Source of the DNA: Candidatus Jordarchaeales archaeon
Lineage (GTDB): Archaea > Asgardarchaeota > Jordiarchaeia > Jordiarchaeales > Freyrarchaeaceae
Assembly: GCA_038889235.1 (NCBI GenBank)
Contig: JAWAHN010000003.1
Location: 293,703-325,702 of the forward strand
Direction of reading: 5' to 3'
Length of the DNA: 32,000 nt
In this document: piece by piece, positions 9,085 to 12,304 of the stretch
How positions within the stretch are numbered: the first letter of the stretch is position 1
How the letters are laid out: every line of letters starts with the position of its first letter
The notes under the pieces: model-generated
The model's database searches: none
Seen by the model: only the letters and a program-made list of their open reading frames with translations
Told to the model about the DNA's origin: nothing
Made by a program: the position numbers and the translations under genes

Positions 9085-10521
9085 GTGGGTGGAGTGAGGA
9101 GTCCAGAAGAGTATCGGGAAAGTCTTTTCAAAATGAAGCCTAACATATACCTTGAAGGTAGAAAGGTTGGTAGAGACGACCCGGCGCTTCAGGGAGGAAT
9201 AAACGTAATATCTAAGACGTTCGAGCTAGTCGACCACCCCGATTTCAGGGACCTGCTAGTGGCGACCTCCCACTTAACTGGGGAGAAGATAAACAGGTTT
9301 ACTCATATAAACCGCAGCCCTGAGGACCTCCTCAAGAAGCAGGAAATGATTAGGAAGCTCTGCCACTTGACAGGAGGGTGCATACAGAGGTGTATGGGTT
9401 GCGACGCCATAAATGCTCTCTCAGTTATAACGTACGAGGTGGACCGAGCGCTCGGAACAGACTACTATAAGCGCTTCACCAAGTACCTTGAATACTTCCA
9501 GAAAAACGACCTCGTGGCTGCCGGGGCGCAAACCGACGTTAAGGGGGACAGGAGCCTTAGACCGCACCAGCAGAAGGACCCAGACCTCTACGTGCGCGTA
9601 GTGAAGAAGACCGATGAGGGAATAGTTGTTAGGGGGGCTAAGAATCACATAACCATGGCGGCCTACGCCGACGAGATCATAGTGCTCCCGACGAGGATTA
9701 TGACGAAGGACGACGCAGACTGGTCAGTTTCCTTCGCCGTTCCGGCCGACGCCGACGGAGTTAAACTCATCACTAGGGCTTCGTCCTTTAGGCCACGTAA
9801 GAAGTTTAAGGCTCCACTAGCGGAAATAGGCTCCACAGACTCGTTTGTCATATTCGACGACGTCTTCGTCCCATGGGAGAGGGTCTTCCTGTGCGGCGAG
9901 TGGCAGTTCGCGGGGCTTCTCGCACACTTATTCGCGCTCTTCCACAGGCATAGTTACACCGGATGTAAGCCAGCTCTCTTCGACATAATAATGGGGGCAG
10001 CCGCGCTGGTTGCAGACTATAACGGTGTCGCCGACAAACCCCACGTCAGGTCGAAGCTTGCCCACTTAATCAGCCTAAGCGAGCTAGTCTACGCCGCAGG
10101 AATAGCTTCGGCGGTCAAGTCGCAGATCTATGGGTCTGGAACTTGCGTGCCGAACGTAGTATACGCCAACGTAGGCAGAAGACACGCGGGGCTAAACGCC
10201 CATAACGCCATAGAGATTCTCACAGACCTTGCTGGTGGACTCCCAGCGACGCTGCCTTACGAAGAGGAGTTCATAAACCCTGAGACCGCTCCGCTGCTGG
10301 AGAAATATATAGCAAGGCGCTCAGGGGTTCCACCGGAAAACGTACACCGGTGCTTTAGAATGCTGTCAGACATGCTTTGCTCCTCCCTAGGAGGCGTGAT
10401 GGCCGTCGCAGACGTGCACGGGGGAGGCTCGCCCGTCATGGAGGAAATAGCCATACTGGCAACATACGACATAGAAGAGAAGAAGAAAATAGCAAAATAC
10501 CTAGCGGGAATAAAGGACTAG
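9085..10521 (+). CDS. abfD: 4-hydroxybutyryl-CoA dehydratase (AbfD)-like / 4-hydroxyphenylacetate 3-hydroxylase family flavoprotein
   Basis: CIQRC (CX3C) and HRHSYTGC (HX6C) [4Fe-4S] ligand motifs, TDVKGDRSLRP, VRGAKxHIT, FDDVFVPWERVF and a C-terminal HGGGSP. Confidence 0.85.
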   Translation: MGGVRSPEEYRESLFKMKPNIYLEGRKVGRDDPALQGGINVISKTFELVDHPDFRDLLVATSHLTGEKINRFTHINRSPEDLLKKQEMIRKLCHLTGGCIQRCMGCDAINALSVITYEVDRALGTDYYKRFTKYLEYFQKNDLVAAGAQTDVKGDRSLRPHQQKDPDLYVRVVKKTDEGIVVRGAKNHITMAAYADEIIVLPTRIMTKDDADWSVSFAVPADADGVKLITRASSFRPRKKFKAPLAEIGSTDSFVIFDDVFVPWERVFLCGEWQFAGLLAHLFALFHRHSYTGCKPALFDIIMGAAALVADYNGVADKPHVRSKLAHLISLSELVYAAGIASAVKSQIYGSGTCVPNVVYANVGRRHAGLNAHNAIEILTDLAGGLPATLPYEEEFINPETAPLLEKYIARRSGVPPENVHRCFRMLSDMLCSSLGGVMAVADVHGGGSPVMEEIAILATYDIEEKKKIAKYLAGIKD

Positions 10522-10737
10522 AACAAACCCTTCACACTTTTTCTTTAGAGCGGAAAAGTGGGCGCGCCTCGCTTTGGCACTTAAACCCGGGTACAAAAAG
10601 GGCGTTGACTCTGGCTTTTTTGAGTGTCGTCAAACTCTGAAGGGGGTTATCGCTCCGGCGTGACTTAACCGTCTCTGCTAGCTTTCAACCAGTTTGGAGA
10701 GCTGGCTGGAAGCAATGCTAATCGGCTTTTTTGGACG

Positions 10738-10751
10738 ACAAAATTTAAATA
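10738..10751 (+). promoter_or_regulatory. Putative BRE/TATA promoter of the FAD-oxidoreductase gene
   Basis: TTTAAATA at 10744-10751 preceded by an A-rich tract, ~48 bp upstream of the GTG start, which has GGAGGAG before it. Confidence 0.5.
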
Positions 10752-10798
10752 AAGAACGTAGAATGTTGATTCGAAACCGTGGTCTTGGAGGAGTTGAT

Positions 10799-12304
10799 GT
10801 GAGCTACAACCACGTTACGCCTGACATAGTTAAGGCGCTTGAAAGCATAGTTGGCAAGGAATATGTTTCAGCTGACATAGCGATGAGGCACAGTTACCTC
10901 TCAAAGGGAATTATGGGGCTCGAAGCCACAGTGCCTGAAGTTGTTGTGAGACCGAAGTACGTGGAAGAGGTACGGAAGATCCTTGTGCTCGCAAACGAGA
11001 ACCACATACCTGTAACCCCGGCCGCGGGAGGACTAAGCGGAGGATACGCTGCCCCCCTAATCCAGCCGGGAGGAATACTCCTAGACCTTTCACGAATGGA
11101 CCGCATAATAGAGGTCAACACCGATGCAAGATACATGGTGATTGAGCCGGGGGTAAGGAGCGGCAAGGTCTGGGCGTACTTCAGAAAGGCAATGTGAACG
11201 CATTGCCCTGAAAAATACTACCCAGACTGGGCACCCCCGGTTCCTGACGGAGCTCCACCAGCCGCAACGGTGGTAGGCGACGCTCTTGAAAGAGGATTCA
11301 GCTTGGTGACAGCTAGGTATGGCCCGCAGGCTGACATGGTCCTCGGCATGGAGGTCGTGCTCCCAACAGGTGAGATAATCAGGACTGGGAGCTGGTCTAT
11401 ACCGGGAGCAAAGCCTTTTTACAGGTGGGGTCCTGGGCCGAACTTTGACGGCCTCTTCCTAGGAGCACAAGGTACTATGGGCGTTGTCACCAAGCTGGCC
11501 ATAAAGATAGTCCCACACCCGCAGTACAAGACGATAGTTGCTTACGGCATGGACAACCCGTACGACATGCAGGACTTCACGCTCGAGGTTTCGAAGTACG
11601 AGCTCGGCATAGCGGACCACATAGTGATGGTTCAGGGAGGGAACTGGCCGCTCGTTATGACCAGGTGGCCGAAGGAGAAGGTTCCAACCGACTACGAATT
11701 CTACAAGAAGCTTGGCATACCCCCGTGGTGGATGAACTTCGAGATATGGTGCCACAGCAAGGAGGAGCTGGACTTTACCGTAAACAAGATCCACGAGCTG
11801 GCTAAGGAGTACAATGCTAAGACGGGCCACGAGATAAAGGAGTGGAAGTTGCACCCCAAGCAGATAGCTAGCAGGCTTAAGAAGCCTAACAAGATAGCCA
11901 TACCCTACTCGCTGTGGGAGGCGGGCTTCCTCTTCATAACGTGGTACACTCCGTGGAAGGACTGCGCCGAGTTCGCGGAGATATATAACCAGAAGCTTGT
12001 AGAGTACGGGTTCCCGCCAGTCATGTGGATAGCTAGCATTGACCACTGCAGGCAAGCCATATGCATGCCCATAGTCTGCTTCAACTACACTAACCCGGAC
12101 GACGTGCGACGCGTGCAGGAAGTGAACAGAGTCACAACAGAGATATTCCTGGAGAAAGGATGGCTTAACTACAGGCCTGACCCGTACGTGCACGCCCCGC
12201 TGACGTTTGCTAGGGCGAAGGCGTACTACGACATGTTGCTGAAGTTCAAGAAAATCCTAGACCCGAACATGATACTCCACCCAGGAAGGCTCTGCATGCC
12301 TTAA
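10799..12304 (+). CDS. FAD-linked oxidoreductase, VAO/p-cresol methylhydroxylase family; intron-containing, join(10799..11186,11214..12304), 492 aa
   Basis: Both track ORFs are in the same frame. The N-half has VVRP...GGYAAP...LLDLSRMDRIIEVN...IEPGV. The C-half has TVVGDALERG, VLGMEVVLPTGEIIRTG, GPGPxxDGLF, GVVTKL, GWLNYR and LDPNMILHPG. GTG at 10799 follows GGAGGAG. Confidence 0.88.
11187..11213 (+). other. Predicted 27-nt bulge-helix-bulge (BHB) mRNA intron
   Basis: Central 4-bp helix UCAG(11181-84)/CUGA(11208-11) with 3-nt bulges AAA(11185-87) and AAA(11212-14). Inner stem GGCAAUG/CAUUGCC. Outer exon pairing includes GUCUGGG(11168-74)/CCCAGAC(11221-27). The segment contains the in-frame TGA (11195-97), and its removal restores the frame. 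Confidence 0.88.

Follow-up and report, generated by a model that had tools for sequence, protein, structure and literature searches.

Within a 32,000-nucleotide (nt) stretch of Candidatus Jordarchaeales archaeon (assembly GCA_038889235.1, contig JAWAHN010000003.1, positions 293,703 to 325,702; the window in what follows), the gene of a FAD-binding oxidoreductase is interrupted by a 27-nt insert, which is very probably a bulge-helix-bulge (BHB) intron taken out of the messenger RNA by the tRNA-splicing pathway. This reading is preferred because of the structure of the insert and its flanks, its conservation among relatives, the fit of the joined product to homologues, the selection acting on the gene, the presence of the enzymes in the genome and the occurrence of the junction in an RNA contig.

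The open reading frames (ORFs) 10694-11197 and 11270-12304 in the ORF list of the window lie in one common frame and are separated by the TGA at 11195-97. In the read-through translation, residues 81-232 correspond to FAD_binding_4 (PF01565; Pfam, E 9e-25, 87.4 bits against a cut-off of 26.4), and many of the 801 homologues carry the name FAD-binding oxidoreductase. The best homologues under this name have 480-535 amino acids and stem from Asgard archaea (Njord-, Sigyn-, Thor-, Loki- and Helarchaeota) as well as from some Bathy- and Aigarchaeota. By these sequence attributes the host gene is a PCMH-type FAD-binding oxidoreductase (PF01565, GlcD-like). Its start codon is likely GTG 10799, which aligns with the start of a 492-residue orthologue (P0002) and has GGAGG 8 nt upstream. 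Removal of 11187-11213 joins TTC AGA A/AA TAC TAC (the slash marking the joint) and thereby yields ...WAYFRK/YYPDW... within a product of 492 amino acids counted from this GTG, while in the window cuts shifted by one place to the right, or by one or two to the left, within the run of A give the identical product.

Comparison with uninterrupted homologues places the boundaries of the insert. All 12 homologues in a protein alignment are gapped by exactly nine residues, with FRK(AM-stop-THCPEK)YYPDW in the window facing FRKKYPEW and similar strings, and the predicted cut and junction agree with this gap. The original prediction had put the EPGV-to-ERG spacing at 38 residues after splicing against 47 before it and had expected orthologues to lack precisely 27 nt. 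Both expectations were borne out, by the nine-residue gap and by the 43 orthologous loci that were fetched (32 intron-less, 11 intron-bearing): the distance from the EPGV to the DGAPPA codons amounts to exactly 75 nt in the 32 intron-less loci, to 102 nt in the window and to 97-111 nt in the 11 intron-bearing loci. Moreover, codon by codon, the spliced product agrees with every intron-less orthologue, whichever length variant of the insert is removed. At locus L004, which encodes a protein 74% identical to that of the window, the gene is uninterrupted in the DNA; the record P0073 is an alternative gene call on this intact gene.

The segment 11168-11227 folds into the canonical hBHBh' motif of the 3-4-3 type, as had been claimed, and the coordinates of its parts are collected in the table. 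Written as RNA, the motif reads GGUCUGGG-C-GUA-C-U-UCAG-AAA-GGCAAUGU-GAAC-GCAUUGCC-CUGA-AAA-A-UAC-UA-CCCAGACU, in which the inner stem GGCAAUG(U)/(G)CAUUGCC spans 8 bp in the window and the outer pairing comprises U11180-A11215, GUA/UAC and GGUCUGGG/CCCAGACU. The inner helix h' has 6-8 bp. The outer helix h consists of 1+3+8 bp, interrupted by a single bulged C and by a small internal loop. The bulges lie on opposite strands, each 3' of its helix strand, which is the arrangement of tRNA introns as derived from the geometry of the 37/38 intron. Minimum free energy (MFE) folding of 11160-11235 gave -34.5 kcal/mol, compared with -18.7 +/- 3.4 for shuffled sequences (z -4.67), and none of the 200 shuffles folded as well. 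The sole difference between the MFE structure and the canonical drawing is that the central helix is drawn with five pairs, the fifth involving U11180, owing to the run of A.

Table. Parts of the interrupted oxidoreductase gene and of its BHB motif (positions in the window)
Feature	Position	Strand	Observation
Exon 1 of the FAD-binding, PCMH-type oxidoreductase (PF01565; assigned by sequence)	10799..11186	+	GTG start, 129 codons and first base of the junction codon
BHB intron (predicted), 27 nt, with in-frame TGA 11195-97	11187..11213	+	without counterpart in homologues; length and loop vary in relatives
Exon 2	11214..12304	+	last two bases of the junction codon, 362 codons, stop
Outer helix h, 5' exon strand (GGUCUGGG, GUA, U)	11167..11180	+	pairs with 11215-11230
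Central 4-bp helix H, 5' strand UCAG	11181..11184	+	pairs with 11208-11211 CUGA; invariant in six variants
5' bulge AAA	11185..11187	+	predicted cut 11186/11187; junction fits homologue gap and RNA contig
Inner helix h' GGCAAUGU/GCAUUGCC, loop GAAC	11188..11207	+	fold; pair 11193/11202 varies
Central helix H, 3' strand CUGA	11208..11211	+	pairs with UCAG 11181..11184; invariant in six variants
3' bulge AAA	11212..11214	+	predicted cut 11213/11214; middle base A, U, C or G among relatives
Outer helix h, 3' exon strand (A, UAC, CCCAGACU)	11215..11230	+	fold, alignment and third-position conservation

The 11 insert-bearing loci, whose proteins are 86-93% identical to that of the window, carry the insert at the identical site in six versions of 22, 24 (L005), 27, 29 (with two different loops) and 36 nt. 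L005, L013 and L017 are labelled Jordarchaeales, Jordarchaeum or Jordarchaeia. By their labels, L006 (Thermoproteota) and the protein record HDO80206.1 (Bathyarchaeota) are at odds with their placement in the Jordarchaeales clade. All versions agree in UCAG, AAA, pairs 1-6 of the inner stem, CUGA, the bulge A-N-A and both cut sites, and they differ in length only within the loop and at the upper end of the inner stem. On the 3' side of the insert, the single variable base is the middle one of the second bulge, which is to be expected because this base is intronic under the canonical cut. Of the pair cells in the six-variant alignment, 97.9% are standard, compared with 31-43% when partners are slid. 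At the inner-stem pair 11193/11202, four variants have U-A, L006 has C-G and L001 has U-G, the shift from U-A to C-G being one compensatory change. The 11 intron-bearing loci group together in a maximum-likelihood tree as a single clade (support 100/100), which fits one gain of the insert. Since both the 27-nt insert and the whole 64-nt motif occur only once in the genome, a repeat or mobile element was rejected, and an assembly artefact is contradicted by the 11 independent assemblies. A search of the motif against Rfam returned chance-level matches only, with no selenocysteine insertion sequence (SECIS) or other family.

A small hairpin-forming insertion might simply have broken the gene and be neither removed nor needed, in which case the locus would be a pseudogene. 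In favour of this, gene callers give two ORFs and public databases hold C-terminal fragments only. The substitution pattern speaks otherwise: when the window is compared with each of five relatives, the ratio of nonsynonymous to synonymous rates (dN/dS) ranges from 0.04 to 0.08 for exon 1 and from 0.02 to 0.04 for exon 2, with dS values of 0.8-2.2, hence near or above one. By this measure both gene halves encode a working protein. Furthermore, six diverged variants in one clade have retained the insert, the BHB core being invariant among them, synonymous sites on either side are under constraint and the gene is found in an RNA library, all of which makes the pseudogene very unlikely. The constraint on synonymous sites is local, as only 3 of 13 codons in the exonic BHB stretch have a variable third position, compared with 304 of 456 elsewhere in the gene (Fisher p 0.002), which places this part among the lowest 2% of 12-codon windows, and the three changes that do occur there preserve pairing (U-A/U-G, G-C/G-U and G-U/A-U). 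The few third-position changes, together with the pairing kept, therefore show that RNA structure constrains the exon sequence at the BHB in addition to coding.

The versions of the insert also bear on the question of whether the stop codon might be decoded, as selenocysteine or by other readthrough, with nine extra residues in the protein. The TGA is in frame and lies inside a hairpin, and Sun et al. reportedly proposed stop-codon recoding for the Jordarchaeales lineage in 2021. In-frame stops are, indeed, TGA in the 24- and 27-nt versions, but the 36-nt version has TAG, and the 22- and 29-nt versions (e.g. L001 and L013) put the two ORFs into different frames, as with 2528-2926 and 3001-4035 in L001. 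Cutting at the BHB restores F-R-K-Y-Y in every version, and in L001 and L013 no other treatment does so. In addition, the nine residues are found in no homologue, so that readthrough can be given almost no credence. SECIS-directed recoding of the TGA into a selenoprotein was likewise rejected in view of the frameshift and the TAG in relatives, the lack of conservation of the residues and the empty Rfam result.

The RNA-level evidence comes from the metatranscriptome run X3, which belongs to a different study from the near-identical DNA runs X1 and X2. Contigs of both DNA runs contain the 27 nt letter for letter. The X3 contigs cover 10711-11182 and 11212-12183, while 11183-11211 is without cover, a lack that is not counted as evidence. 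One of these contigs, record 5 with 670 nt at a depth of 17, opens with the nine letters GTACTTCAG, which equal 11176-84 and differ from the bases preceding 11212, and then continues at 11212. It thus reads TTCAGAAAATACTAC, with GTACTTCAG joined directly to AAAATACTAC, and the resulting ...TTCAGAAAATACTACCC... is the predicted splice junction, for which an RNA check had been proposed. A 9-nt match to a junction fixed beforehand has a chance probability of about 4e-6. A second homologue search and the cluster listing contained no RNA-derived protein with the junction, only C-terminal fragments.

The RNA contig also bears on a third rival, translational bypassing, in which the mRNA would stay unspliced and ribosomes would hop over the insert as they do in phage T4 gene 60. 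The gap is short, starts beside a stop codon and encloses a stable hairpin, and, in the window, an AAG for take-off and an AAA for landing would both be readable by a lysine tRNA. Nevertheless, the codon before UAC UAC is UAA in L001, L017 and L006 are without a matching landing codon, the 3-4-3 geometry of the BHB has no role in bypassing, and the RNA contig is already devoid of the 27 nt. Hopping is hence considered most improbable. Another possibility leaves the cleavage by EndA in place and assigns it a purpose: the BHB would act mainly as a switch, so that conditional or inefficient splicing gates production of the enzyme, and would not be a neutral passenger. The long retention of the intron in one clade would suit such a role, as would the analogy with the 5'-untranslated intron of HVO_1309, the removal of which affects expression (PMC7714728). 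The sole RNA contig across the site, on the other hand, represents the spliced form, and a switch appears rather unlikely.

For removal of a BHB intron as preferred here, the required enzymes are encoded in the genome (2.14 Mb in 8 contigs, 95% complete), which contains two EndA paralogues (PF01974; C1:1056473 and C3:444309, with ORFs of 205 and 195 amino acids) and one RtcB (PF01139; C1:704115). The two paralogues probably form an (alpha-beta)2 enzyme, by analogy with the architecture that occurs in 44 of 60 Asgard genomes (bioRxiv 10.64898/2026.10.13.758758) and that is described as having a broad substrate range (PMC5829648). The tRNA genes of the genome are much interrupted as well: ARAGORN recognised only 14, 10 of which have an intron (11-1333 nt), and most tRNA genes are probably too interrupted for recognition. 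This agrees with the report that 92-95% of the tRNA genes of Freyarchaeia, a synonym of Jordarchaeia, bear introns (PMC11291895). In the proposed mechanism, the exon sequence of the pre-mRNA would supply the outer helix and one strand of the central helix, and the intron the other strand together with the inner hairpin. EndA would cut after the second base of each 3-nt bulge, RtcB would join the exons and probably circularise the 27-mer, and the joined mRNA (...TTC AGA AAA TAC TAC...) would give the full 492-residue enzyme. The unspliced RNA, conversely, would give only an N-terminal fragment of 132 amino acids, from GTG 10799 to the TGA. Both the assignment of these steps to EndA and RtcB and the efficiency of splicing are inferred. 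As to the original prediction of an mRNA intron spliced by EndA and RtcB, it finds support in the homologues, the 22-36-nt variants, the selection on the gene, the RNA contig and the presence of two EndA genes beside RtcB.

Several points have to be set against this interpretation. The RNA support is one assembled contig, not reads, and its anchor of 9 nt was too short for the program to list it as a joint. The strain in X3 differs at 2 of 661 bases and comes from the other study, and an intron-less DNA allele there, though formally possible, is unlikely because much more distant relatives all carry the intron. Covariation within the motif is not significant, as 173 of 500 shuffles did as well with six variants and one double change, and is illustrative only. 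Finally, the genome-wide BHB scan that had been recommended stood up in part: it recovered the oxidoreductase intron and a second one in ppsA, but the motifs that restore ORFs were not above decoys. Among 327,343 core BHB motifs, the number that 'restore' two ORFs with a minimum length of 60 codons was 8,482, compared with 8,403 for the mirror-image decoy, which is not an independent one since any genuine BHB reads as a mirror BHB on the opposite strand. No excess emerged under stricter helices, short introns, masking of ribosome-binding sites plus starts, or cut-shift decoys (-1, 0, +1) either. With the noise of gene boundaries swamping any signal, the census is uninformative either way.

Other interrupted genes of this genome extend the picture. 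ppsA contains an 18-nt in-frame insert with a TGA (C1:711449-711466 (+), equal to L054:550-567) that forms a BHB with GAGG/CCUC and the bulges AUU and AAU. Against the solved phosphoenolpyruvate synthase 8a8e, its six extra residues fall in a gap, VRSSA-AED/LP-ASFAGQQETYL. Similarly, cbf5 (TruB_N; C1:835906-836211 (+)) is split into two frames between GTLEP and KVTGVLPV by an insert of about 29 nt, which lies at about 1590-1625 of locus L055 and for which MFE folding gave no clean canonical BHB. It seems fairly probable that in Jordarchaeia/Freyarchaeia, Asgard relatives of eukaryotes, mini-introns interrupt ordinary genes for proteins of metabolism, translation and signalling as a matter of routine and are removed by the protein-only EndA/RtcB pathway, that mRNA splicing is a regular step of expression in them, and that many of their 'pseudogenes' and 'recoded stops' are unspliced genes.

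Outside the clade, the oxidoreductase gene of a Promethearchaeota contig (Ga0366832_1000095, Lokiarchaeial; L002) harbours a different 30-nt insert at another gene position (L002:2966-2995), with two stops, GPQGD/SLLAVS-stop-YR-stop/NFMCGE. It can be drawn as a relaxed BHB with H GGCG/CGCU, the bulges AUA and AGA, a 7-bp inner stem and a weak outer helix, and a cut after the second bulge base would give GGC GAU AAU UUU AUG, that is G-D-N-F-M. The insert occurs in this one contig, and related contigs are without it. P0092, P0096 and P0117, which share the start residue, were rejected as further carriers of this second site, as they are truncations at contig ends without the insert. A further gene, L003:2485-3975 (ENA contig_14142), contains a stop in frame and about 70 frameshifted codons, shows no insert resembling a BHB and was set aside; it is either a true pseudogene or the product of long-read indel errors.

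With respect to annotation, the original prediction that such genes would be mis-annotated agrees with the public records, which are C-terminal fragments of 333, 344 and 370 amino acids named 'FAD-binding oxidoreductase'. Fragments of 333-370 residues are the annotations in metagenome-assembled genomes of Freyarchaeota/Jordarchaeia (P0128, P0129, P0132 and others in the P0005 cluster), and HDO80206.1 begins with MSLSCPEEYYPDW, its start lying inside the 36-nt intron. As for the neighbourhood, the gene upstream of the oxidoreductase (window 9085-10521 (+)) encodes an HpaB-family protein, with the HpaB_N and HpaB domains found in the relative L001, possibly an enzyme resembling 4-hydroxybutyryl-CoA dehydratase or 4-hydroxyphenylacetate monooxygenase. 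A CCG-domain gene (HdrD/GlcF-like) lies downstream of the oxidoreductase in L002. The HpaB and CCG-domain neighbours hint at a GlcD/GlcF-type module for the oxidation of 2-hydroxyacids or phenolic compounds.

Among known systems, the closest is the BHB intron in the cbf5 pre-mRNA of Crenarchaeota (Desulfurococcales and Sulfolobales; Watanabe 2002 as cited in Yokobori 2009, PMC2738675), which is the only confirmed case in a coding sequence (PMC2738675, PMC7714728), beside an intron in a 5' untranslated region (UTR) of Haloferax. In both cases a short BHB intron sits in a coding sequence, is assigned to the tRNA-splicing pathway, leaves a restored frame and causes the gene to be mis-annotated as split. 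Here, however, the host is a metabolic FAD oxidoreductase and not an RNA-modification enzyme, the organism is an Asgard archaeon, and the intron ranges from 22 to 36 nt within one clade. The 46-nt intron in the 5' UTR of HVO_1309 in Haloferax volcanii (Schwarz 2020, PMC7714728) likewise presents an mRNA with a BHB motif as a substrate of EndA, and its excised piece is circular. It differs in that it resides in an untranslated leader and interrupts no codons, and its cleavage was shown in vitro, whereas in the present case it is predicted from the sequence. The BHB introns of archaeal tRNA and rRNA, including those of Freyarchaeia/Jordarchaeia and Atabeyarchaeia (PMC11291895, bioRxiv 10.64898/2026.10.13.758758), share the 3-4-3 motif, the cut positions, the lineage and presumably the enzymes, but protein-coding introns go unmentioned in both papers on Asgard tRNA introns. 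The exons here are codons, not arms of a tRNA. A more remote likeness is offered by HAC1/XBP1 splicing in eukaryotes, where a protein endonuclease (IRE1) cuts a short structured mRNA intron (26 nt in XBP1) and a tRNA ligase (RtcB or Trl1) joins the exons. That system is not of the same family, since IRE1 is not EndA/TSEN, recognition is by twin stem-loops and not by a BHB, and splicing is stress-regulated and changes the frame on purpose. Searches of a paper library turned up no account of BHB introns interrupting protein-coding genes in Asgard archaea. Taken together, the mechanism is known from crenarchaeal cbf5, while the lineage and the class of host gene are new.

For more than 20 years cbf5 has been the sole confirmed coding case, and the oxidoreductase constitutes a second kind of host gene, with support at the comparative and RNA levels. 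Because public records list truncated fragments only, metabolic reconstructions as well as counts of pseudogenes and of recoded stops for these genomes are biased. At the same time, the natural series of 22-36-nt inserts around an invariant core is a ready set of substrates for the specificity of Asgard EndA. In evolutionary terms, the finding suggests that ordinary mRNAs can be processed by the EndA/RtcB pathway in the lineage nearest to eukaryotes, and it bears on how intron-tolerant gene expression could precede the spliceosome.

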